Part shown: piece after piece, positions 3-24,169 of the stretch | Layout: each line of letters begins with the position of its first letter | Numbering within the stretch: the stretch's first letter is position 1 | NCBI GenBank assembly: GCA_001563335.1 | Contig: LRSL01000023.1 | Coordinates: 1 to 24,169, forward strand | Direction of reading: 5' to 3' | DNA length: 24,169 nt | Origin: Candidatus Thorarchaeota archaeon SMTZ1-45 | Lineage (GTDB): Archaea; Asgardarchaeota; Thorarchaeia; Thorarchaeales; Thorarchaeaceae | Program-made: the position numbers and the translations under genes | Notes under the pieces: generated by a model | The model's database searches: none | Seen by the model: the letters and a program-made list of their open reading frames with translations, nothing else | What the model was told of the DNA's origin: nothing

Positions 3-785
3 GATTATTTCTTGGCTTTTGCAATCAATTCTGCAGCTTTCATATTCTCTGGATTTGCCTTACGCAGCATCAAAACAAATCTAATCCCTAGTCGAGTCGT
101 TGATGATAAAGATTCACTATTATCACAGATTAGACAAGGTACCTGCTATGTTATTGGAAATTCAATTCTCTCATTCCTCTTTGTATTTGCAATGCTCCTT
201 GCGGTTTCATCAGGAATCCTGAATGCACTCTTTATGCCATATCTTGAAGGAGAGCTCGCTTTAGGCTCTTCTCAGGTTGGTCTAGTATTAAGTGCTGGAG
301 CTGCATCTGGAGCTGTTGCAGCCATATACTTTAGTCGCAAGAAAAGGATCAATAGTCCACTTTATCTTGTTGCGGGAGCAGGACTCCTGGCTGGTATTGC
401 TGTCTTTGCACTTGTACTAGCATTCGACTTAATGACTGTAATGATATCTTGGGCGATGATTGGTGCAGTAGATGTTGTTCTAAACATCCCCTTGACTGTT
501 CTTATGCAAGAGCTTGTTGAAGATGAACTACGTGGTCGTGTGTTTGCACTTCTCAATGTAGCATTCACTGCAGTTCAAGTCATTGGTATGGGAATTGGTG
601 GTGTCTGGGCTGAAGCTATTGCAGCAACAGGACCCCCTATGATTGGTGCAGCTTTTGCGCTTGTTTTTGTTTCAATACTCGGTTTTGTTGTTGTTGCAAG
701 ATTGAATCTCCATGCTTTATTATCAAAATCTAAAGAAGAAGAGTCAGAAATTTCACAAGAAATTCTAGTTGAGATAGCTGCTTGA
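3..785 (+). CDS. MFS transporter, 5'-truncated (C-terminal part)
   Basis: The frame is open from the window edge (GAT TAT TTC TTG...). It has multiple hydrophobic TM segments and the MFS loop motif 'MQELVEDELRGRVFAL'. 'FAINSAAF' is typical of the end of the N-terminal MFS bundle. Confidence 0.85.
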   Translation, partial: DYFLAFAINSAAFIFSGFALRSIKTNLIPSRVVDDKDSLLSQIRQGTCYVIGNSILSFLFVFAMLLAVSSGILNALFMPYLEGELALGSSQVGLVLSAGAASGAVAAIYFSRKKRINSPLYLVAGAGLLAGIAVFALVLAFDLMTVMISWAMIGAVDVVLNIPLTVLMQELVEDELRGRVFALLNVAFTAVQVIGMGIGGVWAEAIAATGPPMIGAAFALVFVSILGFVVVARLNLHALLSKSKEEESEISQEILVEIAA

Positions 786-797
786 TTTTCAAGCAGC
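777..797. terminator. Perfect 9-bp inverted repeat at a convergent gene junction
   Basis: GCTGCTTGA-TTT-TCAAGCAGC overlaps the MFS stop codon and is followed by a pyrimidine-rich tract (ctctttctc). It lies between the converging MFS and kleisin genes. Confidence 0.5.
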
Positions 798-811
798 CTC
801 TTTCTCATTAT

Positions 812-1471
812 CTAGGTGATATCAATCTCTGAAACTGAAGGTTTCCAAATTTCTCTAGTGTCTGAATCGTAATGCAACCTTCCCTTGGAAACCAAGATGA
901 CTACATAGAGAAAGTGTTTCAAAAAGATATCCAAGTCATCACTCATCACTATGTCATCAAACTTTGTCTTCTTGTCCTCAGGAATTGTAGCTAGAAATTC
1001 GTCCAAGTCCTCAAGAAAAACAGAGTCTTCTGTTTCAAGAGCAAAACCATTTGGGAGCGCTGAAATTTCCGGAACGGACTCTTTTACTGGTTTTCTAGAC
1101 ATCGCATCAATTAAACTCACAACTCGATGTAATGCATCTCCAAGCGAATCTTGTTCGAGATGCCCGACAACAACTGGTTGTTTCTTTGTGACTAGTCTAG
1201 CAAGATCTCTCATTGAAAGATCTTTGAGACAGCTAACATATACTTCTGGAGCTGCAAGGATTCTTGCAAGTTCCTGAACACGGGTTACCTTCGAGCTCAG
1301 TATCTCGTTAAGCATCTCATCAATATCAATTCGGCTATCTATCTTAGCTGCTAACTCCTGAAGGTCTCTGTATGCTTGAGTTAGACGGAGTTCAAGAGGG
1401 TCAACCTCGCCTGCACGAACAGCTTGCACCATGTCAAAAACACTCTTTGCAAGACTTTCAGTTCTGCTCAC
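812..1471 (-). CDS. Kleisin (ScpA-like) subunit of an SMC complex
   Basis: It lies 13 nt downstream of the SMC gene on the same strand, with a GTG start preceded by GGAAGTGA. N-terminal 'GEVDPLEL' resembles the ScpA 'iDPwdi' motif. C-terminal 'TKFDDIV...FLKHFLYVVILVSKGRL' resembles the kleisin C-terminal winged helix. Confidence 0.7.
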   Translation of the reverse strand: MSRTESLAKSVFDMVQAVRAGEVDPLELRLTQAYRDLQELAAKIDSRIDIDEMLNEILSSKVTRVQELARILAAPEVYVSCLKDLSMRDLARLVTKKQPVVVGHLEQDSLGDALHRVVSLIDAMSRKPVKESVPEISALPNGFALETEDSVFLEDLDEFLATIPEDKKTKFDDIVMSDDLDIFLKHFLYVVILVSKGRLHYDSDTREIWKPSVSEIDIT

Positions 1472-1484
1472 AATCTTTCACTTC

Positions 1485-4400
1485 CTATTGTGCCTTGAAT
1501 TTTGGGCTCTCAATTATTATAGAGGGATCAACTCCATTTGGAGAAACTACACCTAATATCTTATCAGCATGTTTCAATAGATGCGTACTCTTTGCAGGAG
1601 TCAGTATTATGAACTGACTACTTCGAGACGCATCATGAAATAGACGGCTAACCAACTCTGTGTTTGTTGCATCAAGGAATGTGTCAACTTCATCCATCAC
1701 ATAGACAGGCGCTGGATTGAATCTTTGAAGAGCAAGTATCAATCCAATCGCAATTAGAGATCTCTCTCCACCTGAACCTGCACTGATATCACCAAAACCC
1801 TCAGTTTTAATTCTTGATTTGAATTCAACTCCATAGTTTCCATCTCTTATTGCAAGAGCGAATTTGACACTTCCTGGAAATTGAACACGTCCCAATACTT
1901 CGTTCACACCTTTCTCCACTTTTCGAAGAGTTTCATTCATGCCATTATGATATTGCTCTCTAATGCTACGAACAGCAGACTCAGCTTCATCAAGCTCTTC
2001 ACCGAGCTCAGAAACACGTTTGACGAGTTCATTGAGTCTTCCTTTCAATTGATTCTCTGTATGTGCTACTGTTTCCGAAACATCTTGGTAGTCATCAAGA
2101 ATGTGTCTAAGTTTGATGAGTTCATTTCTGACAATGTCAATATCTCGAATGTTATCTGGCTTGGTCTTCCCTTGAAGATCTTGTTCAACTAATTCTATAT
2201 CATACTCTAGGTTTGTTAGTTGTCTTTTTGATTGCAGAACCTCAAGTTTCCTTGTCTTAACAAGTAGATTGAGTTCAATTAACCGTTCACTAAATGTGCG
2301 AATCTTATTCCTTATTTCAGAGATATTGTCTTTGATCTGTGATTGCTTATTCTTTGCATTCTCTCTATCTCTACGCATAGATTCTATATTCTCAAGAATT
2401 GATGAAACTGTATTCTTTGATTGTTTGATTTCTAAACGTAGGTCAGTTAGACTACTTGATATTATCTCAATAACCTCTCTGACTCTTTTAAATTCCTGCC
2501 GCTTAAGCTCTTCATCCTTCTCAGAAGCATGAGCTTTGTTGTCTAATTTTGTCAAGTCACTCTGAAGTCGTCTATGTTTGGTTCGTATTGCTGATTCCTG
2601 TCCTACCAATCTACTCCGTTCAGGAGGCTGTGTGCTATCTAATTTTCTTAGGTTTCTCTCAGCTTTCCCATAATCTCGTTGTAGATCCTTCAATTCATTA
2701 TCAATAGTCACGATTCTTTCTTGGAGTTCCGGAATACTCTCGTTTAGCTTTCGACGGCGTTCCCATGTTGAGCCCCAGCGAGTCATCTGACTGATCAGTT
2801 CCATTGCTTCCTCTCGTTCGTTTGAGAGAATTTCCAATCTTGCCATAATGTCTGTGACATGTTTTCGCTCTACTGTAAGGTCTTTCTCCATCTTTGTCAT
2901 CTGTGTCTGAAGTGGTGCAGTTGAAACCAATCCTGATGGTTCACTTTTTGGATGATTAACTATTTGTTCGTTGTTCGGTATAGTGACAGATCCATCTTGT
3001 GTGACAACTCTAAGATTTTGTTTTATTGCTAATCGAGATGCAACTTGAGAGTTCTTGACAAGTAAAAAATCACCAAACACTCTACTTAGGAGAATCTGGA
3101 CCTCTGCTTTTGCATTAAGTCTGTCCCATAACCAGTCCTCTACTCCTACTCCTTGAGGCAATTCAGGTTTCTGACGTGGTTTTTCATCTCTTAGGAGGAT
3201 TATTGGAGAAGGGGCTTCCTCCTTATTTCTGAGTTTAAGTAAAAGTTGATAGTCGGAATAGTCTGTTGTAATAAATGCCAATGGAAGGTTGCTTGATAGA
3301 ACTCCCTCAACTGCAGCAGAAATATCATCATCAGCTGTAAAGAGGCTAATGAGTGGTCCTTTCACAGTTTCTAAATTATGCTCTTGAATTGCTTGATCAA
3401 GAGATCGAACTGACTCAGGTATGCGTTTAGACGATTCTGATAACCTGATTTTGATGTCATCAATATCTTTCTGAAGTTGGGCTACCAGACTGTTTTTTCT
3501 GAATCTTTCTTCATTTAGAGTAGTAATCTCCCGTTCTAGCTGAGATTTCCTGTGTTCTAGCTCTTTTGCATCTGTTTCTTCTATTCTATCCCATATATGT
3601 GACCATTTACTTTCTATTGCTTGCAGTTCTGCCTCCTCGATCTGAAGTCTCTCACGGAGACTTCTCATGAATAGATCTTTACCTTCTATTTCGGCTTGAA
3701 GCGCTTTGTAGTGACCATGTGCTTCAGCTCTTCTGGTGTTCCATTCAGCGAATGCTGCTAGTTCATCCTGTATTCTGGTTCGTTCCTCCTCTAACTCCTT
3801 AATCTCCTCACGGAGTTTCTTCTGCTGTTCCATATAACGTTCTCTTGCAGCAGACAGTCTTTCCAAATCTTCTTTCAGCTTCTCCTCTTTTCGTTTCTCG
3901 AGCTTCAAATTATTCTCAAGATGTCGAAGCTCAGTTATGTGCTTCTTAGAATCTCCCTCAAGCTTTGCAAGGTTCCTTTCTTCTTCGTCAATCTTTGCAT
4001 CAATTCGACCGAGTTCTGAATGAATGTTTGATATTCTTGTTTCAAGATCCGTGCTCTCATTCTCCAGTTCAGAAACCTGTTCCTCGATTGACCTTTGCTC
4101 CTCTAGTACACTTACGAGACCAGACTCTTTGGTTTCAATCTCATTCTTTGTCTGCTTTATTCTATTCACGAGGTCTTTGAAACTCGCCCACAGCAGTTCA
4201 TGTTCTATCTCCCTCTCTTGATTTTGCAGAGCTCTCTTTTTCTCAAGTCTGGAGAGATCGTGTTGGAGTAGCTCTAATTCTCGTTCAACTGTTCTTGACT
4301 CTGTAAGTGCAGCATCGAGCTTTTGGCGACTCTGGATGACTTCGGTTTCCTGGAGTCCAATCCTATCACGAAGAGCGTCAAGTCCTGTTCCCTCTTCCAC

Positions 4401-4853
4401 AAGTTGCCTTACTTCAAAAGGATCCATTTCTCGGATTGCGTTGATTCTCTCCTGTGGCATGAATATCAGTGGGTTGTCTGTTTCAAGTCCTAGAGAGCTT
4501 ATCATCTGCTTGTGTTCTGCTGCTTTGACTCGTTTCCCATCTACATATGCACGGGGTATGCCATCTCTGTCAATCCTTCTTAGGAATTTGCGGCTCTGTC
4601 CATTTACTTTTACAGAAATTTCAACCTCTGCAGCGTTTGCACCATGTCGGATGAAATCACTCCATTTGCTATACCGATTTTCTCTTTGATTAGAACCTAG
4701 TGCGAATTTTAATGCGTGGAAAATTGAAGTCTTCCCTGAACCATTTGGTCCTGCTAATACTGTGAGTCCTCTATCGAACTCCACTCTTCCTTTATAGAAG
4801 GATAGGAAATTCCCCAGTCTAACTGATTCGATATTTACTGTTATTTCACTCAT
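1485..4853 (-). CDS. smc: SMC ATPase with hinge, Smc5/6-like
   Basis: Walker A GPNGSGKT (about 4728-4751), Q-loop 'DNPLIFMPQERI', two long coiled coils, central hinge ('KGPLISL...AAVEGVL...FGDFLLV...VVTQDG'), signature SGGERS (about 1758-1775) and Walker B/D-loop 'VYVMDEVDTFLD'. Confidence 0.93.
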   Translation of the reverse strand: MSEITVNIESVRLGNFLSFYKGRVEFDRGLTVLAGPNGSGKTSIFHALKFALGSNQRENRYSKWSDFIRHGANAAEVEISVKVNGQSRKFLRRIDRDGIPRAYVDGKRVKAAEHKQMISSLGLETDNPLIFMPQERINAIREMDPFEVRQLVEEGTGLDALRDRIGLQETEVIQSRQKLDAALTESRTVERELELLQHDLSRLEKKRALQNQEREIEHELLWASFKDLVNRIKQTKNEIETKESGLVSVLEEQRSIEEQVSELENESTDLETRISNIHSELGRIDAKIDEEERNLAKLEGDSKKHITELRHLENNLKLEKRKEEKLKEDLERLSAARERYMEQQKKLREEIKELEEERTRIQDELAAFAEWNTRRAEAHGHYKALQAEIEGKDLFMRSLRERLQIEEAELQAIESKWSHIWDRIEETDAKELEHRKSQLEREITTLNEERFRKNSLVAQLQKDIDDIKIRLSESSKRIPESVRSLDQAIQEHNLETVKGPLISLFTADDDISAAVEGVLSSNLPLAFITTDYSDYQLLLKLRNKEEAPSPIILLRDEKPRQKPELPQGVGVEDWLWDRLNAKAEVQILLSRVFGDFLLVKNSQVASRLAIKQNLRVVTQDGSVTIPNNEQIVNHPKSEPSGLVSTAPLQTQMTKMEKDLTVERKHVTDIMARLEILSNEREEAMELISQMTRWGSTWERRRKLNESIPELQERIVTIDNELKDLQRDYGKAERNLRKLDSTQPPERSRLVGQESAIRTKHRRLQSDLTKLDNKAHASEKDEELKRQEFKRVREVIEIISSSLTDLRLEIKQSKNTVSSILENIESMRRDRENAKNKQSQIKDNISEIRNKIRTFSERLIELNLLVKTRKLEVLQSKRQLTNLEYDIELVEQDLQGKTKPDNIRDIDIVRNELIKLRHILDDYQDVSETVAHTENQLKGRLNELVKRVSELGEELDEAESAVRSIREQYHNGMNETLRKVEKGVNEVLGRVQFPGSVKFALAIRDGNYGVEFKSRIKTEGFGDISAGSGGERSLIAIGLILALQRFNPAPVYVMDEVDTFLDATNTELVSRLFHDASRSSQFIILTPAKSTHLLKHADKILGVVSPNGVDPSIIIESPKFKAQ

Positions 4854-4856
4854 CTA

Positions 4857-5996
4857 TTATCTTCCCATTATTCTATGAAGTCGATCGCTGTTCTTTTTAG
4901 CTCTGAGAAGTCTTGTTAGCCGATCCTCGGCAGAGCCATTCAGAAGGAACGGATGCCTACTGAGAAACTCGCGGTCCTTGGCAGACAAAGGCAATCCTTC
5001 ATTCAAAACCTCAATCACACGTTGAGTTTCAGCATAGTCTTCTCCTACGGCCAAAAGGTAGAGCTGGTCCAGAAACTCTTCTGGATATTCTTCAATCAGT
5101 TTACTAATTTCTGGTTGACGAGTGCCCCTTGTCTTTCGGATTAATTCATCAAGAAATTTGGTGTCACCAAAGGCGGCAACTCTGCTTTGCTCAATAAGCT
5201 CCTCAACCTTCTCTCTTGACATTTCTCCACTTTTAGTCATCTCTTGCATGTATAAGCTCATTGCAAGATGCTTCACATCTGAGAAACCCCACCCATCGGT
5301 AAGTTCTGCAATCACTGAAACATCGAATTCATCACGACCCTTCAGAACTTGTTCAAGCACACGAACTCTATCATCAAAGGTTGCCCCTTCAATAATATAG
5401 GTCCTATCGAATAATGAGAGCAATTCTCTCTCTATCTGATCTGGTCTTGTTGATGCAGCAATAGTGATTACTTCCTCTGCACTCCACCTAGTGGTTTTGA
5501 TTTCTTCCTGAATAACCACAGATTGAATGGAATCTCTGGGTGCAATAGCTTCTAGCTTTCCTATATAGAGTAATGCAGGTGAATTTCTACGAGCGAACTC
5601 AAACCCTTCTCTAAGTGCATCACTACTCCTTTTATTCTCATCAAGAACTCCTTCCATCTTGAACTGAATGATTTTTATTGGCACCTCCCGTGCGAGAAAG
5701 TATGGAAATGCACAAAAATCACAACCTGAAGGTCCTAGAAGTAAAACTCTTCCACCAAACTCAAGTCCCCGCTCGTCCATCTTGGTTTTTAGCGCATCGT
5801 ACCGTTTGATAATTTGAAGAAACTCGGAGGCAAAGTTTACAACAGAGTATTGGTCTATCTGCTCCTTTGGAACCTGCTCCGGTGTGATTAGGGTCACAGT
5901 TTCAATGAATCTTTTTCCTTCGCCCAACCTTGAACCACCCCACTGAGTGCTGGCTTCTCGGTCGTTACCCTGAAAGCATATTACATCTTCGGACAT
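4857..5996 (-). CDS. Classical-clade AAA+ fold protein with degenerate catalytic motifs (probable pseudo-ATPase)
   Basis: It aligns by eye to Cdc48/PAN/FtsH-type AAA domains: 'VLLLGPSGCDFC' (Walker A position), 'FEFARRNSPALLYIGKLEAI' (Walker B position), 'ITIAASTRPDQIERELLSLFD' (SRH) and 'IAELTDGWGFSDVKHL' (lid). Confidence 0.8.
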   Translation of the reverse strand: MSEDVICFQGNDREASTQWGGSRLGEGKRFIETVTLITPEQVPKEQIDQYSVVNFASEFLQIIKRYDALKTKMDERGLEFGGRVLLLGPSGCDFCAFPYFLAREVPIKIIQFKMEGVLDENKRSSDALREGFEFARRNSPALLYIGKLEAIAPRDSIQSVVIQEEIKTTRWSAEEVITIAASTRPDQIERELLSLFDRTYIIEGATFDDRVRVLEQVLKGRDEFDVSVIAELTDGWGFSDVKHLAMSLYMQEMTKSGEMSREKVEELIEQSRVAAFGDTKFLDELIRKTRGTRQPEISKLIEEYPEEFLDQLYLLAVGEDYAETQRVIEVLNEGLPLSAKDREFLSRHPFLLNGSAEDRLTRLLRAKKNSDRLHRIMGR

Positions 5997-6069
5997 AGTA
6001 CAATTCCGCGCCGAACTATATTGTCACTATATGCTTCGAGTATCATTCTCTGCCAATCTTGCTAGAGGT

Positions 6070-7011: not shown

Positions 7012-7173
7012 AAGAATCAGTCCTGATTTGCTGTTCCTTTAGATAACCACATCAAATGCCTCCACTATGCGCATCTCTGTCCCTTTTGTGTGTTGTGACT
7101 AGCATCATTCGCGCCGTTCTGTGCGAGGTTCATAAGTGTTAAGACTGACAATATCTCGTGGTAGGTGGTTCCA

Positions 7174-8883
7174 ATGAGTCAGAGTGAGAAGCTTCGAGGA
7201 CTGGTTCTGAAAGTTATGTCCACTGTAGAGAGTAGAGGTCTCTTTGTTCACTCGTCAGACCTTGAGATAAAATATAATGATCCTAGTTCCAAGAAGCCAT
7301 CAGTAAAATCAACCCGATTCCCCTTGATTGTTGGATCGTGTATCCTAAATGCACTAGTTCCTAGGTCCGCGATGCTTCTTGTTGGTGGACATGGAGGCGG
7401 GAAAACAACACTTGTCAAACTATTAGGTAGAATGATGACTGGAAGGTCTCTCAATGAGATTGAGGATGGAATTCTCCGTGGACATCCAATGTTAACTGAA
7501 GAGAAGATGGTCGCAACACTGAAACCTGGGCCTTTGATGAAAGAGGGTATTGAGTTAGTTGTCTGGCGTCAATTTGTAACAGATTTCTGGAAAATTATCG
7601 ATGAGGTGAATAGGCTCACCCCACATGCTCAAAATATTCTGCTCTCTCTTCTAGCAGAGGGTGAGGTCAAATACTATGATGAGATAAAACGTTGTGAAGA
7701 GTACTGTCTTTATGCGACATTGAATCCAACGGATGCTGGAACATTCGATGTTGGACCACCATTTCTGGATAGATTTGGAATAGCTGTTCCAATCACAATG
7801 CCAAGTGTAAATGATTTGGAGCTCATTCTCGCTACCAGAGATGAGCGACTCTTTGGTTTTGATGAACTCTGGCAGGTTCCCGCAGTTCTCACAGAAGAGA
7901 ATTTGTTAACAATCTGGAATCTAGCTGACAAGGTGCATGTGTCATCTGAGGCGTCTGAGTTCATGCGATCACTCGTGAGAGAGTTTGGAGCATGCATTCG
8001 GGTTGATAAGAGTCAAGCCTCAGGTCTTACTGTTGAAACCGGTCTTTGTGATGGCTGTCATTTTGATACAGCCAAGAGTGTCTGTAATAAGGTGATAGTC
8101 CCTCTGAGTGTCCGTGCTGCAAAGGATCTCAATAGATACTCTAAAGCTGCTGCATGGTTGGTCGGAGCACAAGAAGTCACAGTGGAGATGGTAAAGTCTT
8201 TAGCTCCCCTTGTCTTTTGGCATCGTACACAATTCACTAGAAATGAACTGGAACGTTCCCCCTATTATGGAGATGTCTATGCTTATGCAACCCATCTTGT
8301 TGAATTAGCAGCATCTAGATTTGTGCAACGGGCACCAGCAATTGCTATTATGGACAAACTGAAGCAAGGCCAAGAGAGTAAAGACGCATTTGATGAACTC
8401 AAAGAGATGGCAAAAAGCGATCTTCTAGTTCGTTTGGATTATACTTCATTAGCAAAACAACTGAGAAGGCCTGGATACACTAAGACAGTGAAGGATATTG
8501 ATAAGGGTATTAAAAACCATGATGTGGATGAGCTGACGAAGATATATGATAACCTGCTAATCGATACTGAGTTTCCAAATAGGAGCATGCTTATGAAACA
8601 GGTTTCAGATGCTCTTCATAGGCTCACTTTAACTCAATTTGCGATAACCTTTGACCAATGGCAAGATCTCTGGACTTTAATCAGCATTCAATATCCAAAA
8701 TTGACTAGTGTTCTCAAAGAAACTCTCTCCCCTCCAAAGAGGAAAGTTGTTCGAAACGATGGGCTTACTGTTGTAATCTACACGACTGGTGACTCCCCTG
8801 ATTCTGCAGTATTTCTCGAGATTTCTGGAGGTACAGATGCGTTGAATCTAAAGAAAGAGATTCAGAAACAGATAGGAGAGTAA
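7174..8883 (+). CDS. MoxR-family AAA+ ATPase with C-terminal extension
   Basis: Walker A GGHGGGKT, Walker B 'IIDEVNR', sensor-1 'ATLNP', Arg finger 'FLDRF' and sensor-2 'LSVRA'. It is adjacent to a vWA gene. ATG 7174 is preferred over GTG 7165 because GGTGG (RBS) lies just upstream. Confidence 0.85.
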   Translation: MSQSEKLRGLVLKVMSTVESRGLFVHSSDLEIKYNDPSSKKPSVKSTRFPLIVGSCILNALVPRSAMLLVGGHGGGKTTLVKLLGRMMTGRSLNEIEDGILRGHPMLTEEKMVATLKPGPLMKEGIELVVWRQFVTDFWKIIDEVNRLTPHAQNILLSLLAEGEVKYYDEIKRCEEYCLYATLNPTDAGTFDVGPPFLDRFGIAVPITMPSVNDLELILATRDERLFGFDELWQVPAVLTEENLLTIWNLADKVHVSSEASEFMRSLVREFGACIRVDKSQASGLTVETGLCDGCHFDTAKSVCNKVIVPLSVRAAKDLNRYSKAAAWLVGAQEVTVEMVKSLAPLVFWHRTQFTRNELERSPYYGDVYAYATHLVELAASRFVQRAPAIAIMDKLKQGQESKDAFDELKEMAKSDLLVRLDYTSLAKQLRRPGYTKTVKDIDKGIKNHDVDELTKIYDNLLIDTEFPNRSMLMKQVSDALHRLTLTQFAITFDQWQDLWTLISIQYPKLTSVLKETLSPPKRKVVRNDGLTVVIYTTGDSPDSAVFLEISGGTDALNLKKEIQKQIGE

Positions 8884-8889
8884 TCTATT

Positions 8890-10623
8890 ATGTCGAGAGT
8901 TTCTACCGATTCCTCCTCAAATAGTGATTTTATAGAATTAGCACAACGAGCGTGGGAACAAGCTCTCATTGATTTCTATCATCCTCCCCTTCCAGAACCA
9001 GAGATAGAGAATATAGCAGATGCAGCAAGTTTCTTCTATATTGATTCCGAGAGTTGGACAATTCACCTCAATACTGCAGGTGTCCCTCATTATATGGATG
9101 CCAATGAAGCAGAGCCATATTTGAGGTCAGTCTGTCATCACGAGATTCAGCACTATCTTCTTTGTCCTTATGATGGAGTTACCAATGGGTTTATGTTTGC
9201 TGCAGCTCGAAGAAAGGTCAACGATTCAACAGCAATGTTTGTCTGCAATCTCTTTGCTGATTTAGTTGTTGATTCCAAGCTGTTGAAAAAGTATCCATTA
9301 TTGACACACAGTCGTATCAATGCGTCAATCCATGAATCTGCTCTTAGAGTGCGAGAACATAGTCCACTCTGGATTCTGATAGTTGCTACTTATCGGGCGA
9401 TGTGGGGATTTCCAATTCCTGCTCTAGCTAAGGTTGATGAATCCACATCCACAGCTGCAACCGCAATCGCTAATGTCGCTTGGAAGTCTATTGATAATGA
9501 GATGCGATGGGCAAAAGCCTGCGAAAAGATAGCTAAAATCATTGCGGATTGGATGCCTCAAGATAATGAACAACTACCTGGATGTGGGCTAGATAAATCA
9601 GGAAAAGAAACAGCTGGAGATACAACAGCAGACAGAATCACTATCTGGATCCCACTTGATGTAGATGCAATAATGGGTAATCCAATTGAGGTCAGAAATG
9701 GCGACTTGGCTCGTAAATGCTTGCAGAAAGAGTCATCTACGGACCAAGAAGCTGAGCTGGAAGATTTAGCTATAGATGTTGAACAACGTGGTGGTAATCT
9801 CGAAGACCTAGAGGGTGTTTATCTAGCCGCTGGATTTGGTGACCCTCGAGAATCATGGATTCGTTTCTGGTATCGCGCTAAAGCGAAGGGTTTGTTGCAG
9901 TTTGATGTGAAAGAACGAAAATACTCAGGTAGTTCTCCCCTCTCCCCTCAAACTTGGCGCATGGGTGACCCCATTGAGGACTTGGATATTGTTCAATCAC
10001 TCCAATCTTTCCCAATAATAATACCTAACATTTCTACTCGAAAATGGCTGAAAACAATGTCAGATGGAACGACTCAGTCTAAGTCATTTCCAGATATGCT
10101 TGTGGTGATTGACTCCAGCGGTTCAATGACTTGGGGAATGAACCCGAAGTCAATCAGTGGTCCATATCACACAGCATTGGTCGCAGCTTTCGCTTCAATA
10201 GATGTAGCGTGGAGAATGGGTTCCAGAATAGCTGCAATCAATTTCTCAAGTGATAGCAGAGCAAGTAAATGGTCCACTTCTAAGGTTGAGATTGAACGTA
10301 CTCTACTCACCTATCAGGGAGAAGGTACAGTTGCTCCCGTGAAAAAAATCACTGAATTATGTCAATCAGCTGAATCAAATGTCATGGTGGTTATTATGAC
10401 TGATGCTGAAATCGTCAACTGGGAGAAGTTTGTGGACTTGGTTCGTAACCTTACCAACCAAGGTCATAGATTGTTCTTATTTCATATTTCTGCTAGTCGC
10501 GAGAAAAAGAGCTTAGCCCAACGAGCCTTGGAAGATGCTGGTGCAGTTATATATCCAATCAAGTCTGTGAAAGACTTACCTGGTCTAGTCATTAGAGAAG
10601 TACGCAATATGTACCGACTATAA
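8890..10623 (+). CDS. HEXXH metallopeptidase-like domain fused to a C-terminal vWA (MIDAS) domain; MoxR partner
   Basis: 'HHEIQH' followed by 'NLFADLVVD' (zincin-like third-ligand region). MIDAS DSSGS at 10111-10125 plus 'GT' and 'MTDAE'. Starts 6 nt after the MoxR stop. Confidence 0.85.
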   Translation: MSRVSTDSSSNSDFIELAQRAWEQALIDFYHPPLPEPEIENIADAASFFYIDSESWTIHLNTAGVPHYMDANEAEPYLRSVCHHEIQHYLLCPYDGVTNGFMFAAARRKVNDSTAMFVCNLFADLVVDSKLLKKYPLLTHSRINASIHESALRVREHSPLWILIVATYRAMWGFPIPALAKVDESTSTAATAIANVAWKSIDNEMRWAKACEKIAKIIADWMPQDNEQLPGCGLDKSGKETAGDTTADRITIWIPLDVDAIMGNPIEVRNGDLARKCLQKESSTDQEAELEDLAIDVEQRGGNLEDLEGVYLAAGFGDPRESWIRFWYRAKAKGLLQFDVKERKYSGSSPLSPQTWRMGDPIEDLDIVQSLQSFPIIIPNISTRKWLKTMSDGTTQSKSFPDMLVVIDSSGSMTWGMNPKSISGPYHTALVAAFASIDVAWRMGSRIAAINFSSDSRASKWSTSKVEIERTLLTYQGEGTVAPVKKITELCQSAESNVMVVIMTDAEIVNWEKFVDLVRNLTNQGHRLFLFHISASREKKSLAQRALEDAGAVIYPIKSVKDLPGLVIREVRNMYRL

Positions 10624-17203: not shown

Positions 17204-17878
17204 ATGAGTCCGGTCAAGATTGCTGCTGTAGCAGATGTCCATAGTCCACGATTTCTCGACGATTTCAAAAACGCTCTTTCCAATTGTACTCCACCTGATC
17301 TCTTACTTTTTGCAGGTGATATGATCAGTCATGGCAAAGCAGAGGAATACATCAATGTCTTAGATGTTGTAGACTCTGAGTTGGGTTCTGGTTTCCCAAT
17401 CATTGCTTGTTTTGGGAATGAGGACCCCGTAGAGATAAGTGATGAAATTCAATTCAATATAAAAGATAGACTAGTTTTCTTGGATGAAGAATTAATCACA
17501 CTCTCATTAACTGATTATCAAATCACAGTAGTTGGAATATCTTCAGTCAGTTCTGAGTTGTATGAAGCTCAATCAAAAGATATTGCAGAAATACGAGCCA
17601 ACTTTGAGGATCGTTCATTACGTGTTTCAAAACTTCTTCAAGATGCATCCAAGGCTTCGGACCTTGTCGTTCTTTTGATGCACTTCAGTCCGCTTCTTGA
17701 GAATATTTCTGCCGAGTTCTCGTGGTGGATATCAAAAGCAGTGGAAAAAGCTCCACCTAATCTGATTGTTCATGGTCATGTCCATGACTCAATAAGAACT
17801 AAGATAAAGATAGGGTCCACGATTATTAGAAACGTAGCCCTTCCTGCAACTCATTTCGTCACAGAACTACTTTTTTGA
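17204..17878 (+). CDS. Calcineurin-like metallophosphoesterase (copy 2, tandem paralogue)
   Basis: Motifs 'ADVH', 'AGDMIS', 'FGNED', 'MHFSP' and 'HGHVH'. It shares 'VADVHSPR' and 'IGSTIIRNVALPA' with copy 1. ATG 17204 aligns with the copy-1 start (the ORF track gives TTG 17198). Confidence 0.85.
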   Translation: MSPVKIAAVADVHSPRFLDDFKNALSNCTPPDLLLFAGDMISHGKAEEYINVLDVVDSELGSGFPIIACFGNEDPVEISDEIQFNIKDRLVFLDEELITLSLTDYQITVVGISSVSSELYEAQSKDIAEIRANFEDRSLRVSKLLQDASKASDLVVLLMHFSPLLENISAEFSWWISKAVEKAPPNLIVHGHVHDSIRTKIKIGSTIIRNVALPATHFVTELLF

Positions 17879-18309
17879 TCTTTCTTCAAGTCATGTCCTG
17901 TGACTTTCATCGTGGGCTCAAACTTGTACCCGTATACAATGACCCCACCGTGTCCAAACTCCTTGATTTTTCGGAAGCACGCCCGAACTCGCATCCCGAT
18001 TTTCACATCTTCTGGGTCAACATTGACAATCTGAGCAGTAAGTCGAGTTCCTTCATCAAGCTCAACCTGGGCTATCACATATGGGATTTGTCGTTTGAAA
18101 TCCTCTGGTGCTTGGCGTACTATGGCGAACGAATAAATCGAACCAAGTCCCTTAAACTGATAATCAACAAGTCTACCTTTTCGCCGACATTCTGGACAAA
18201 CAGGTCTCGGTGGGAAATAGAAGGTTTTACATGTTTCACATTTGTTCCCCTGAATATTATAGATTGATCTGATTCTTCTCCAGACTCCAGCTACTCCTTG
18301 TTCAGCCAT
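17851..18309 (-). CDS. DUF35 Zn-ribbon/OB-fold scaffold protein of the thiolase-HMGS complex
   Basis: 'CETC...FPPRPVCPEC' zinc ribbon followed by an OB fold ('PYVIAQVELDEG', 'IGMRV', 'YGYKF'). Third gene of the operon. Confidence 0.92.
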   Translation of the reverse strand: MAEQGVAGVWRRIRSIYNIQGNKCETCKTFYFPPRPVCPECRRKGRLVDYQFKGLGSIYSFAIVRQAPEDFKRQIPYVIAQVELDEGTRLTAQIVNVDPEDVKIGMRVRACFRKIKEFGHGGVIVYGYKFEPTMKVTGHDLKKDQKSSSVTK

Positions 18310-18315
18310 TTTTCT

Positions 18316-19476
18316 TCATCTCCCAAGAATGTGCACAATTGATGTTGCCCCTGTACCGCCTATATTAACTGCAAGTGCTTTTTCTGCCCCATCAACTTGC
18401 CGTTTCTCAGCATCACCTCGAAGTTGGAGTGCTAGCTCTACTATCTGCGCTACACCTGTCGCCCCAACTGGATGACCTCTCGCCTTAAGCCCTCCAGAGG
18501 TGTTGACGGGAAATTTACCGCCAATCTCAGTGATGCCTTCATCCAATGCTTTTCCACCTTCTCCTTTCTTAGCAATTCCTACATCCTCAGTGAGGATGAT
18601 TTCGCCAATGGAAAAGCTATCGTGAAGCTCAAACACATCTATATCTGTAATTTCTAGCATTGCTTCTTGCAGTGCTGATCTTGTCGATTTTATAACAGCA
18701 TCCATCCTGGTGATGGATGGTCGATCATGAAGCGCTAATGTATCGCTATTTTGTTCAGAAGCTTCGATATACACTGGAGTGTCAGTGTACTTCTTTGCAA
18801 GATCTTCACTACACATTACGAGCCCAGCAGCTCCATCAGTAATTGGCGCTGAGTGAAGAACTCTTAGCGGATCGGCAAGGAGACCAGAATTCATAACCAC
18901 CCCGATGGGCACTGGGCGTTGGAACTGAGCCCAAGGATTATGGGCTGCATTAGCATGATTCTTTACTGTTGGCTTTGCAAGTTGCTCCTCAGTCGTTCCA
19001 TATTCCATCATGTGCCTACGCGCCATAAATGCATAGAGTGCTGGAAATGTAGCTCCAAACATGCCCTCCCATTCCCAGTCAGCAGCAACTGAGATTGTGT
19101 TCATAGCTTCTGTCTGGTTAACATCACTCATCTTTTCAGTACCAAGGACAAGCATTACTTTATGTTCTCCAGACTTGATAGCCATGTACGCATGTCTAAC
19201 AGCAGCGCCTCCACTTGCACATGCAGCCTCCACACTATATGCTGGCATATCACCAAGTCCACCCATATCCGCAGCTTGAGCACCTAGATGTTCTTGACCT
19301 GTGAATCTCCCTGCGCTCATGTTTCCAATTACTATACCATCAATATCCGCCCCACGAACTCCAGAGTCAAAGATTGCATACATACCAGCTTCTAACGTGA
19401 TATCTCTAAGGTTCTGATCCCACAGCTCGCCAAATTTATTCATTCCAACTCCAATAATAGCTACTCTATTACTCAT
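18316..19476 (-). CDS. Archaeal acetoacetyl-CoA thiolase (mevalonate pathway)
   Basis: Catalytic 'EAACASG', 'ELHDSF', 'GHPVGATG' and 'NIGG'. RBS GGAGGTG upstream. Lies between HMGS and DUF35. Confidence 0.93.
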   Translation of the reverse strand: MSNRVAIIGVGMNKFGELWDQNLRDITLEAGMYAIFDSGVRGADIDGIVIGNMSAGRFTGQEHLGAQAADMGGLGDMPAYSVEAACASGGAAVRHAYMAIKSGEHKVMLVLGTEKMSDVNQTEAMNTISVAADWEWEGMFGATFPALYAFMARRHMMEYGTTEEQLAKPTVKNHANAAHNPWAQFQRPVPIGVVMNSGLLADPLRVLHSAPITDGAAGLVMCSEDLAKKYTDTPVYIEASEQNSDTLALHDRPSITRMDAVIKSTRSALQEAMLEITDIDVFELHDSFSIGEIILTEDVGIAKKGEGGKALDEGITEIGGKFPVNTSGGLKARGHPVGATGVAQIVELALQLRGDAEKRQVDGAEKALAVNIGGTGATSIVHILGR

Positions 19477-19491
19477 AATTACACCTCCATG

Positions 19492-20529
19492 TCAGTCTTT
19501 GATTTTCCGCCGGTATTTGGCATATATTGAATAATCAACATACGTCTTCCGTTCAATATAATCATCGACGGTTGGTACTTCTCCTCGTCTATCCTCAATA
19601 GCATCCTCAACAGTTATTGAGAATGCATCGCTTCCTGCTCCAGAACCATATGCAACCATGAATATCCTGGATTCAGGCTTAGCAATATCAAGAATTCTGG
19701 CTAGTCCAATCATGGCTGAACCTGAGTAGGTATTTCCAATATAACGAACAACAAGACTATCCTCTAGCTTCTCAGGTGGGACATTGAGTTCTGCTCCCAT
19801 TGCTAATGGGAATTTGCCATTTGGCATGTGAAAGACAAAGTAATCGTAGTCATCAACAGTTGTATTTGTTTTCTTGAAGAGTGATTTTGCACCTTCACCA
19901 ACATGTCTAAAGTATGCTGGCTCTCCTGTGAATCGTGCACCGTGGCTTGGGAAGTCTTCTCCTTCGCGTCTCCAGAAGTCTGGGGTGTCAGTTGTGAACG
20001 ATACTGTTTCGTTTATCGTTGCGATGATATTTTTCATACCAATTAGAAATGCAGCTCCGCCTGCAGCAGCGGAATATTCCAATGCATCTCCAGGTCTCCC
20101 CTGTGCTGTATCAGAACCAATTGCCAGCCCAATCTTAATCATCTTAGACTTGACAAGACCCATAGTTGTTTGTATTGCTGCAGTTCCTGCCTTACAAGCA
20201 AATTCATAGTCTGCGCATGTCATGTCATGAGAACAACCAATAGCTTCTGCCACAATAGTGCCCGTTGGTTTGACAGCATAAGGATGAGACTCAGAACCTA
20301 CGTAAATTGCACCAATGTCTGTGGGATCAATTTGAGCTCTTTTTACTGCATTACGCGCCGCCTCAACTGAAATAGTAGCCACATCTTCATCAGGTCCTGG
20401 AACAGACTTCTCAAAGACACCAAGTCCTTTTCCTATTCTTGCGCTATCTTCACCCCAGACTTCTGCAATGTCTGAAGTTTTGATTCGATAGCGTGGTACG
20501 TACACTCCATAACCAACAATACCAACCAT
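19492..20529 (-). CDS. Hydroxymethylglutaryl-CoA synthase (archaeal type)
   Basis: '[11 protein letters not shown]', catalytic 'FACKAGT', 'FHMPNGKFP', 'GNTYSGS' and 'YGSGAGSD'. Confidence 0.95.
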
Positions 20530-22478: not shown

Positions 22479-22883
22479 TCAACCAGAAGTCTGGACTTCA
22501 TTGAGTAAGACTTCTTTTACACCAGTTATTCCCTGCAATCGATCTTTTAGATTACTGACTTCAACGTTCAGTTGTTTTGGTGTGAAATAGCACTCATAGA
22601 AACACTGATCCGCAGCTTGACAGATTCCGCTTGTGAATAGAATATCTTCAAGACCGACTTCCATGAAGACCATTGTAAGCTCTTCAAGAAAGCTCTTGCT
22701 GAGTTTCTCAATGACAAGCTTGAGATACATAACAGTACTACTGTCAACAGGATACAGCTTGACATTGCCATCCTTGACTACGAGGATTGCCAGTCCATAT
22801 TGCTGACCTATTCTATCAACAAATGCCTCTGGCAAAGTGATTCTATCCCCCTTCTCGATTTTCAGTACTCTTGCCTGCGTCAT
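22479..22883 (-). CDS. Putative regulator: AbrB/MraZ-like N-terminus plus ACT-like C-terminus
   Basis: 'LKIEKGDRITLPEAF' resembles the swapped-hairpin 'kvD.kGRI.lP' motif. The C-terminal beta-alpha-beta-beta-alpha-beta pattern ends 'LQGITGVKEV'. The start is either ATG 22883 or TTG 22898. Confidence 0.55.
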   Translation of the reverse strand: MTQARVLKIEKGDRITLPEAFVDRIGQQYGLAILVVKDGNVKLYPVDSSTVMYLKLVIEKLSKSFLEELTMVFMEVGLEDILFTSGICQAADQCFYECYFTPKQLNVEVSNLKDRLQGITGVKEVLLNEVQTSG

Positions 22884-22972
22884 GTCACCCTTTGTCAATC
22901 AATTCTGCCTCCGAAGAGTCACCTGCCATGATACAATGTGGTGATTATATCTCTTGTGGGAGTGACTAATAA

Positions 22973-24169
22973 TCAGTTTCCACGACGAAACCAGCTACGA
23001 ATTTTTACTAAAGCTTCCATCTCAGGCTTTTCCACGACTCGAAGTGCCCAATTTGTTGCATCAGTGATTGAAAATTCGAGAAAAGCCACCTCTCCTTGCG
23101 AGCGGATTCTCTCCATTTCCTGTAACCTGCCAATTAACCAAGCTTTCTTTGATACTGGCATTCTTGAGGTAGCCATATCAAATAAAGCAGGATGTAGATC
23201 AAAAATCAGGGCTCGTTCTTTCATATATTCAAGAACTCCTTCTTGAAGCGCTTGACTGATTTTTTCTCGATCTGTGAAAAACGATGCAGCCACAGACATG
23301 TTGGTGTATTTTTCTGGAATGTTCAAGGCAAATTTGAATGAACGGTTGAATTTGGATAGATGCGTTGCTGCATCAAGGAAGAGTATAGTTTCTGGTTTCC
23401 CTTCAAACTCATCCTCCGAAATCTCCAAGTGCTGGTCAGTTGCTATCTCTTCTTGGTCAATTACAGATTGAATTAGCTGGTCAGTGACTGGTGGAAGATC
23501 TCCATCTTGGATTGATTCAATGGCCTCATAGGTTAGTGTTTCACTCTCCCATTCTTCCTGTTTCTGCTCCTTCTTTTTTTCTTCTTCCTTCATTTTTGGA
23601 CGCCTATGAGGAGGTATATATCCAATTTCCTCAACTAAGTGCTGAAGAACCAAGGGAAGGAACAGATCATAGAGTGTTCCTCTAGTTTCAAGAATTATCA
23701 AGACTGGTTTGAATGATGCTACAGCTTCAACAAGACCAGATTTGAAGTCTAGTGAATCATCAAAGAACCTTCTGAGTTTCTCTTCTGAGTAGCCTCTATT
23801 CACACGTTCTGTCCACTCTGCATAGACATCCTTTACCTCTTGTTTTCTACGATCTTTTATCATATTCACGAACTTACCTAAATACCGGACTCCTCGAGAG
23901 ACTGCAGTAGCAGGACTGATGAATACTGTCATCATCCCAACTGCTTCACCAGCATAATCGCTGGCTTCTGTATCTCGAATTTTGCCCATGACTTCTTCAG
24001 TTAGGGAGGGAGGACCAAGTTTCTCAACAAGTATTTCGATCATCCCTGCAAAGTCCTCAAAAGAAGCATCACCTGGACCAATTCTTTCACCCACTGGTGA
24101 TGCATCAGATAGGACCTCTGCGAATACATTGGGTCTTTTCACAAGCCAATCAAGAGGAACTCTAATTGA
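22973..24169 (-). CDS. Hypothetical protein, 5'-truncated, with a central charged/acidic linker
   Basis: The frame is open to the window edge (TCA ATT AGA GTT CCT CTT GAT TGG CTT GTG...), giving at least 398 codons. No family recognised. Contains the low-complexity segment 'KEEEKKKEQKQEEWESE...'. Confidence 0.7.
   Translation of the reverse strand, partial: SIRVPLDWLVKRPNVFAEVLSDASPVGERIGPGDASFEDFAGMIEILVEKLGPPSLTEEVMGKIRDTEASDYAGEAVGMMTVFISPATAVSRGVRYLGKFVNMIKDRRKQEVKDVYAEWTERVNRGYSEEKLRRFFDDSLDFKSGLVEAVASFKPVLIILETRGTLYDLFLPLVLQHLVEEIGYIPPHRRPKMKEEEKKKEQKQEEWESETLTYEAIESIQDGDLPPVTDQLIQSVIDQEEIATDQHLEISEDEFEGKPETILFLDAATHLSKFNRSFKFALNIPEKYTNMSVAASFFTDREKISQALQEGVLEYMKERALIFDLHPALFDMATSRMPVSKKAWLIGRLQEMERIRSQGEVAFLEFSITDATNWALRVVEKPEMEALVKIRSWFRRGN

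Follow-up and report, generated by a model that had tools for sequence, protein, structure and literature searches.

What is a gene for a degenerate AAA+ ATPase doing at the head of an SMC operon? The question is raised by a 24,169-nucleotide stretch of DNA from Candidatus Thorarchaeota archaeon SMTZ1-45 (the window; contig LRSL01000023.1 of assembly GCA_001563335.1), which is contig C23 of a genome (G000) of 3.54 Mb, assembled in 119 contigs and 87.7% complete. Three minus-strand open reading frames (ORFs) at 4857-5996, 1485-4853 and 812-1471 are separated by intergenic gaps of 3 nt and 13 nt, coordinates that confirm the co-orientation and close packing described in a preliminary description of this DNA. 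From first to last, these genes are:

4857..5996, minus strand: pseudo-AAA gene; 379 aa from ATG; Pfam AAA match, E 3.7e-9; fold from an AlphaFold2 model
1485..4853, minus strand: second SMC paralogue of the genome, 'SMC5/6-related' type; 1122 aa; SMC_N and SMC_hinge domains, intact ATPase motifs
812..1471, minus strand: kleisin gene; 219 aa, GTG start; family-profile match to the C-terminal winged-helix domain (C-WHD) of ScpA

We propose that these genes belong to a Thorarchaeota 'SMC5/6-related' operon and that the product of the first, here called the pseudo-AAA, serves the SMC ring as a fourth subunit or regulator that has no catalytic activity, a reading to which we assign a probability of roughly 0.6. 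The identities of the genes, their tightly and widely conserved order and the loss of motifs are direct observations, as is the existence of a KITE gene.

The AAA-like gene and its protein

Besides its match to Pfam AAA (E 3.7e-9), the AAA-like protein matches the NCBIfam models for Cdc48, PAN and CdvC far below their cut-offs. An AlphaFold2 model built from a 35-sequence alignment (mean predicted local distance difference test score, pLDDT, 86.3) has FtsH, the D2 domain of p97/VCP, PAN and Msp1 as its closest PDB folds (E ~1e-11 to 1e-12), and the fold is therefore that of a classical-clade AAA protein, with an alpha/beta domain of this clade, a lid and a C-terminal helical domain of ~85 aa (window 4860-5114). 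Active classical AAA+ ATPases carry a Walker A motif GxxGxGK[ST] and a Walker B motif hhhhDE. The corresponding stretches here read GPSGCDFC and LLYIGKLE; judged against that consensus, the protein lacks the Walker A Lys/Thr and both Walker B acids, and neither Walker motif of an active enzyme is present. The catalytically dead AAA+ protein of the preliminary description is thus upheld, and the pseudo-AAA is predicted to be no longer able to bind or hydrolyse ATP.

This loss extends across the family. The pattern GxxxxGK[ST] is retained in only 2 of 77 full-length representatives; the rare lineages f19 and f28 (genome families are given by number) keep Walker A (GRSGTGKT, GPSGNGKT) with Walker B altered to DN or EN, and the lid and C-terminal domain are still there in Baldr/Jord-type genomes, where part or most of the AAA alpha/beta core has been deleted. 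The C-terminal helical domain is the best-conserved part of the protein, with near-invariant polar residues (Q, Y, A, K). Core erosion and motif loss alongside a retained lid and C-terminal domain therefore point to a conserved function in the latter two parts and not in catalysis. A search of the ESM Atlas with the C-terminal domain gave only matches at or below 0.81 and was uninformative.

The position of the gene was surveyed by scanning the SMC motif of the window's clade across 185,579 species genomes, which gave 158 confirmed stretches, the best 80 of which were examined. All 80 were labelled either as Asgard archaea (Baldr, Hermod, Jord, Hod, Odin, Thor and Loki/Promethearchaeota) or as 'uncultured archaeon'. 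In 79 of these 80 loci the ORF immediately upstream of the SMC gene, on the same strand, is AAA-like; the sole exception has just 370 nt of upstream sequence. Of 24 genomes from the genus of the window, 21 carry the gene. Among the 19 of these with a kleisin match, 18 place it 3388-3417 nt from the kleisin gene, a distance with room for exactly the SMC. The preliminary description had proposed the AAA-like gene as an SMC partner and named loss of the neighbourhood in related genomes as the observation that would speak against it; the conserved adjacency removes that objection. At the AAA-SMC junction the gap is 3 nt in the window, and the genes overlap by 4 nt in two relatives (L031 and L033); the AAA-like gene is predicted to be translationally coupled to the SMC gene.

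A profile of the C-terminal domain, run on 301 sampled genomes of the Asgard phylum, found exactly one copy each in 136. By family it was present in 60/76 genomes of the Thor family (f1), 62/68 of the Loki-type family (f9), 7/7 of f24 and 3/5 of f7, and also in f2, f8 and f29; it was not found in f3, f5 (0/28), f12 (0/19), f14, f22 (0/21) or f27. The family is small: among 1.84 billion proteins it comprised 109 representatives at E <=1e-3, with the C-terminal domain at the C-terminal end of all but four (P0162, P0167, P0173 and P0216). Of ten taken from the more divergent or atypical representatives, six are named, five with Asgard labels (Helarchaeales, Sigynarchaeota, Promethearchaeota) and one as a 'hypothetical protein' without an organism. 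The identity of the gene declines with taxonomic distance, with the copy number at one, and homologues are named Thorarchaeota or Promethearchaeota at NCBI, in line with the earlier suggestion of an archaeal, possibly Asgard, complex.

Some loci differ in what surrounds the gene. In 53 of the same best 80 loci, all of the Loki type (within L062-L141), a co-oriented gene of the ArsR helix-turn-helix family stands upstream of the pseudo-AAA (for example L063:1780-2169, ~131 aa, PF01022 E 2e-15); the window has none. The f19 locus L039 (G063:C1:1908000-1924000) holds a short-armed form of the operon, with a 459-aa AAA protein that has an intact Walker A, an SMC of 835 aa and a KITE, with a 218-aa gene at the kleisin position and several more co-oriented genes downstream. 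The f19 SMC is short, yet its Walker A, signature and Walker B motifs are intact.

The SMC, kleisin and KITE genes

The second gene encodes an SMC proper, with ABC head motifs, coiled coil and a central hinge: Pfam SMC_N covers residues 8-1104 (136 bits) and SMC_hinge residues 496-609 (E 4.7e-8), and the alignment gives Walker A as GPNGSGKT, the signature as SGGE and Walker B as MDEVD. Against TIGR02169, the model of canonical archaeal Smc, it scores 297.9 bits, below the cut-off of 729.4 bits. The canonical set is encoded on contig C55, where an Smc (878.4 bits with TIGR02169) stands beside a 239-aa ScpA and a ScpB (PF04079, 123 bits). This ScpA (G000:C55:53119-53838), between Smc and ScpB, reaches 28.1 bits with PF02616 against a cut-off of 24.6 in a direct scan of the ORF; a genome-level Pfam search for ScpA had missed it, which calls for caution with absence calls from six-frame family searches. 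The canonical Smc that the preliminary description had suggested looking for is supplied by this Smc-ScpA-ScpB operon, and the window SMC is its paralogue. A difference in the H-loop was considered as a Smc5/6 signature and dropped, since the canonical Smc of the same genome also lacks the histidine there.

Pfam returned nothing for the kleisin, including the ScpA, Rad21 and Nse4 models. A profile of ten family members (A5) nevertheless matches Pyrococcus ScpA at its C-terminal winged helix (4i99_C, E 4.7e-7; 5xns_C, E 3.8e-4), with profile positions 138-208 aligned to the ScpA chains as a kleisin C-WHD; for the N-terminal domain there is a weak match to the ScpA N-domain (6ivh_A, E 0.39). Alignment with the genome's own ScpA (hhalign) gave a probability of 12.7%. 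In relatives the gene always lies between SMC and KITE.

The preliminary description had the unit lacking a KITE gene, which proved wrong. Four distant relatives (L030-L033) carry, after the same three genes, another one whose product has 145-175 aa and winged-helix matches; searched with a profile of these four products, the window genome yields one gene, of 170 aa, at G000:C83:1341-1853 (E 5e-33). Contig C83 abuts the window: its start, reverse-complemented, has an exact 18-nt overlap with the start of the window, through which the frame of an MFS transporter gene continues, C83 opening with the 5' part and window positions 3-785 holding the 3' part. On the joined sequence the kleisin and KITE genes share a strand, the KITE start follows the kleisin stop by ~2133 nt, and the intervening MFS gene runs the other way. 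Unbroken contigs from 16 genomes of the same genus likewise place the KITE gene 1.0-4.0 kb downstream of the kleisin gene and on its strand; most of the other Asgard genomes have the AAA-like, SMC, kleisin and KITE genes contiguous in that order. The operon thus looked KITE-less because of a contig break plus a lineage-specific insert of ~2 kb, a lesson for annotation, where apparent KITE loss can stem from such a combination.

An AlphaFold2 model of the C83 protein (pLDDT 87.5) has two winged helices, the tandem arrangement of a KITE, and the first 19 PDB matches listed are all ScpB, JetB, Nse1/MAGE, Nse3 or MukE chains. The best is ScpB (3w6j, E 7e-6); JetB (8as8_C, 8dk1_E) was also matched, as were the Nse1/MAGE-G1 and Nse1-Nse3 structures (5hvq, E 1.1e-4; 7dg2, E 2.5e-4). 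After the KITE gene comes one for a TFIIB-type zinc ribbon protein (G000:C83:1795-2271, 158 aa, PF08271 E 2.8e-8), and a similar 120-aa gene follows the KITE gene in the same-order genome G025 (L031:2205-2567), so that Thor-type lineages may have a fifth gene linked to the operon.

Across the sampled Asgard genomes the KITE profile was found in 154/301, with nearly the same family pattern as the AAA-like C-terminal domain; 129 genomes have both, 101 of them on a single contig, with the strand shared in 100 of those 101. In the spacing comparison, which 146 of the 154 KITE-positive genomes entered, the AAA-to-KITE distance was 3.9-4.55 kb in 82 of the 101 same-contig genomes, as fits a contiguous AAA-SMC-kleisin-KITE block with the KITE gene next to the kleisin gene; in the window genome those two are ~2.1 kb apart. 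The spacing was at least 6 kb in 15 same-contig genomes, and 13 of these belong to the window's genus.

Such a complex has been described. Van Hooff et al. (bioRxiv 10.1101/2024.01.07.573240) report that archaea of the TACK and Asgard groups possess two SMC-kleisin-kite complexes, each with its own operon: the condensin/cohesin-related one has kites resembling ScpB, and the SMC5/6-related one has a kleisin resembling Nse4 and kites resembling Nse1/3. An archaeal SMC clade sister to Smc5+6 is reported by Yoshinaga and Inagaki 2021 (PMC8665677). Since a canonical Smc-ScpAB is encoded elsewhere in the genome, the window locus is, by elimination and under the two-paralogue scheme of the literature, the second, published 'SMC5/6-related' operon. 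The idea of a previously unseen kind of SMC system is accordingly given up, the SMC-kleisin-kite core having already been published by van Hooff et al. The main texts of these two papers, apart from supplements and Figure 4D, do not mention AAA, MoxR or Cdc48, and further literature searches found no description of an AAA-like partner. The AAA-like first gene therefore appears new as a conserved member of the operon.

Flanking genes and the MoxR-VWA pair

Around the SMC operon lie housekeeping genes, and the features that immediately flank it in the window are:

777..797, no strand assigned: hairpin, perfect 8 bp (GCTGCTTG-5 nt-CAAGCAGC), read from the sequence
3..785, plus strand: MFS transporter gene, 3' part (Pfam MFS_1); 5' part on the abutting contig C83
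6070..7011, minus strand: TauE/SafE-type membrane protein (Pfam TauE E 8.9e-37), between the pseudo-AAA and MoxR genes
7165..8883, plus strand: MoxR-type AAA+ ATPase, 572 aa (AAA_5 E 7.7e-11, AAA_lid_2 E 1.7e-6), divergent from the SMC operon
8890..10623, plus strand: VWA-domain protein, 577 aa, MoxR partner (weak Pfam VWA/VWA_2, residues 402-562)

The hairpin lies where the kleisin and MFS genes converge, has the MFS stop codon in its loop and may terminate both transcripts; inspection of the sequence showed no T-run after the stem-loop. The TauE/SafE gene is probably a lineage-specific insert, because the spacing from pseudo-AAA to VWA is ~2.7 kb in most Thor-family genomes and ~3.8 kb in the window. 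In the 5997-6069 interval a TATA-like AATATAG lies ~21-27 nt upstream of the ATG at 5996, a position that would suit a leaderless transcript from that codon. The public database calls the pseudo-AAA as 356 aa, from a TTG 23 codons downstream of the ATG (residue 24). Further along the window, adjacent genes at 17851-20529 encode an OB-fold/zinc-ribbon (ChsH2-like) protein, a thiolase and an HMG-CoA synthase-like protein, the trio that one would expect to serve the opening steps of the archaeal mevalonate pathway, and Pfam gives no match at E 1e-4 for two minus-strand ORFs (139 aa and 389 aa) at 22479-24142.

The MoxR-type gene, with AAA_5 and AAA_lid_2, followed by a VWA gene constitutes a MoxR-VWA pair. 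The VWA matches of the window protein are weak (E 0.04-0.06); its orthologue in L032 matches VWA_2 at E 5e-4. Chaperone-like pairs of MoxR and VWA proteins include CbbQ-CbbO and RavA-ViaA, and the 572-aa and 577-aa proteins of the window are of the same type. Literature linking such a pair to an SMC complex was not found in our searches, in which the matches listed concern McrBC/CoCoNuT systems.

Could the pseudo-AAA, the SMC ring and this pair form one machine, in which MoxR and VWA remodel, load or unload the ring and the dead AAA is their docking adaptor? The VWA orthologue, found in 143/301 Asgard genomes, tracks the same families as the operon (f1 66/76, f2 1/1, f7 3/5, f8 1/1, f9 52/68, f24 7/7), with 0 or 1 match each in f3, f5, f12, f14, f22 and f27. 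Linkage of the pair to the operon also takes three forms that differ in gene order, by counts that leave out weak and fragmentary rows. In the Thor family (f1) the VWA gene lies within 2.7-5.2 kb of the pseudo-AAA, divergently and head-to-head, in 55/61 genomes; in f7 (3/3) and f8 (1/1), at Baldr/Jord-type loci, MoxR-VWA is co-directional and directly upstream of the operon; and on an f20 contig (L142, G114:C104:1-4320) kleisin, KITE, MoxR and VWA genes run in one direction with overlapping junctions. In f2 the VWA gene is 7.3 kb from the operon. The VWA frame of L142 is short (195 aa), and may be a broken gene or reflect poor sequence near the contig end. The three orders suggest a functional tie, and this repeated linkage hints at an AAA+-assisted step.

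Against such a tie, MoxR-VWA is unlinked in the large Loki-type family f9 (0/50 on the same contig) and in f24 (0/7 nearby; on one complete chromosome the distance is 477 kb). In family f19, which has the operon, the VWA orthologue is found in 0/6 genomes at E 1e-15; MoxR-VWA occurs in another f20 genome with no operon close to it; and related genomes are not independent, so that co-occurrence may reflect just taxonomy. With unlinked families and non-independent genomes the tie stays conjectural, and we regard it as unlikely, though the best placed of the alternatives, that a dead AAA docks a MoxR motor and a VWA adaptor to load, unload or remodel an SMC5/6-type ring. Were it so, a once-active classical AAA would have turned into a docking subunit in the archaea most closely related to eukaryotes, and the machine would be an ATP-driven SMC loader or unloader of a kind unknown in any domain of life.

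The proposed role of the pseudo-AAA and comparison with known systems

In the mechanism we favor, that of a non-catalytic fourth subunit or regulator, an SMC homodimer ring would be closed by the small kleisin carrying the tandem winged-helix KITE, and the pseudo-AAA would dock on the ring through its lid and conserved C-terminal helical domain. There it would control loading, ATPase activity or turnover of the ring, a role that may be likened to that of the non-SMC accessory subunits of eukaryotic Smc5/6. The ring itself would act in chromosome maintenance, as suggested by the single-copy, vertical-looking distribution, the housekeeping neighbours and the absence of any defence-model match for the kleisin, KITE, MoxR and VWA proteins.

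Several observations weigh against this reading. Three genomes of the same genus (71-92% complete) gave no AAA-like gene. No AAA-SMC fusion occurs among the 109 family representatives, the longest of which has 623 aa; apparent fusions in two genomes (G192 and G108, open frames of 1589 and 1563 aa) were rejected after ORF calling separated the genes in both, with a TGA stop and a 21-nt spacer read at the junction in G192. In the window's genus the KITE gene lies outside the AAA-SMC-kleisin transcription unit, and the operon logic is therefore weaker there. The 'SMC5/6-related' label rests on the published papers and was not reproduced by similarity here: in pairwise HMMER comparisons the SMC head matched Pyrococcus Smc and condensin/cohesin SMCs at E 1e-17 to 1e-30 and Smc5 or Smc6 at E 1e-6 to 1e-16, which places it nearer the former, and ScpB and JetB ranked above Nse1/Nse3 for the KITE model. 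Finally, we infer that the pseudo-AAA binds the ring and has a regulatory effect. A complex prediction with the SMC head (residues 1-210 and 925-1122), kleisin and pseudo-AAA scored 0.00, below the mark, and counts neither way.

An improbable view is that the AAA-like gene is merely a conserved neighbour, either a decaying remnant or a gene whose product joins other AAA rings such as Cdc48. The erosion of the AAA core in several lineages would suit a remnant, and the binding of the pseudo-AAA to the SMC complex is inferential. A decaying gene, however, would not be expected to look like this one, which is single-copy, open and immediately upstream of the SMC gene across lineages that share ~20-30% identity, and its C-terminal domain keeps the near-invariant Q, Y, A and K residues. 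Very improbable is a Wadjet/Mks-like or Lamassu-like defence against plasmids or viruses in place of chromosome maintenance: SMC-kleisin-KITE rings do serve defence in Wadjet, and the SMC gives partial PADLOC matches to LmuB (103 bits) and weak ones to JetC (~30 bits), and the pseudo-AAA matches IetA at 22.8 bits, but the kleisin, KITE, MoxR and VWA proteins match no PADLOC model, no nuclease gene was found in the operon (JetD was not searched for genome-wide), the neighbours are housekeeping genes, and the distribution is single-copy and vertical-looking instead of the patchy pattern of defence islands. The role in restricting extrachromosomal DNA that the preliminary description had allowed for likewise finds no support in the PADLOC models or the housekeeping context.

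How, then, does the operon with its proposed fourth subunit compare with known systems? Wadjet (JetABCD) and MksBEFG also combine an SMC-type ATPase, a kleisin, a KITE and a fourth protein, and JetB is among the matches of the KITE model. In the window, however, the fourth gene encodes a dead AAA and not a Toprim nuclease, and the pattern is housekeeping-like and single-copy; a JetABCD system was not recognized, as the kleisin and KITE have no PADLOC match and JetC reaches ~30 bits. Smc-ScpAB has the same three-part architecture, its kleisin C-WHD (that of Pyrococcus ScpA) is the one matched here, and ScpB 3w6j is the best fold match of the KITE. It differs in that the window SMC falls below the canonical cut-off and that the kleisin and KITE fail the Pfam models for ScpA and ScpB.

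Eukaryotic Smc5/6 (with Nse4, Nse1/Nse3, Nse2 and Nse5/6) resembles the operon in its SMC ring, kleisin and KITE, and the KITE model matches Nse1-Nse3. Extra non-SMC subunits of Smc5/6 regulate its loading and ATPase activity; an AAA-fold component is not known from it. Unlike Smc5/6, the window operon has single SMC and KITE genes, the SMC presumably forming a homodimer; genes of the RING, SUMO-ligase or Nse5/6-like kinds were not seen in it, its extra gene is of the AAA fold, and pairwise similarity does not bring its SMC nearer to Smc5/6 than to other SMCs.

The closest likeness is to the archaeal SMC5/6-related operons, which share a second SMC, a small kleisin and a non-ScpB KITE of their own, encoded together, and the Asgard lineage. 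As published, these have three subunits; the window operon adds a leading pseudo-AAA, and in its genus an MFS gene splits off the KITE. What is new is thus the conserved dead AAA partner and the possible MoxR-VWA link, the SMC-kleisin-kite core being known. Asgard SMC5/6-related complexes are thought to be the source stock of eukaryotic Smc5/6. If the fourth subunit is conserved across the sampled Asgard lineages, the archaeal complex would be richer than the published three-subunit picture, with the pseudo-AAA as a concrete protein candidate for its loading or regulation.

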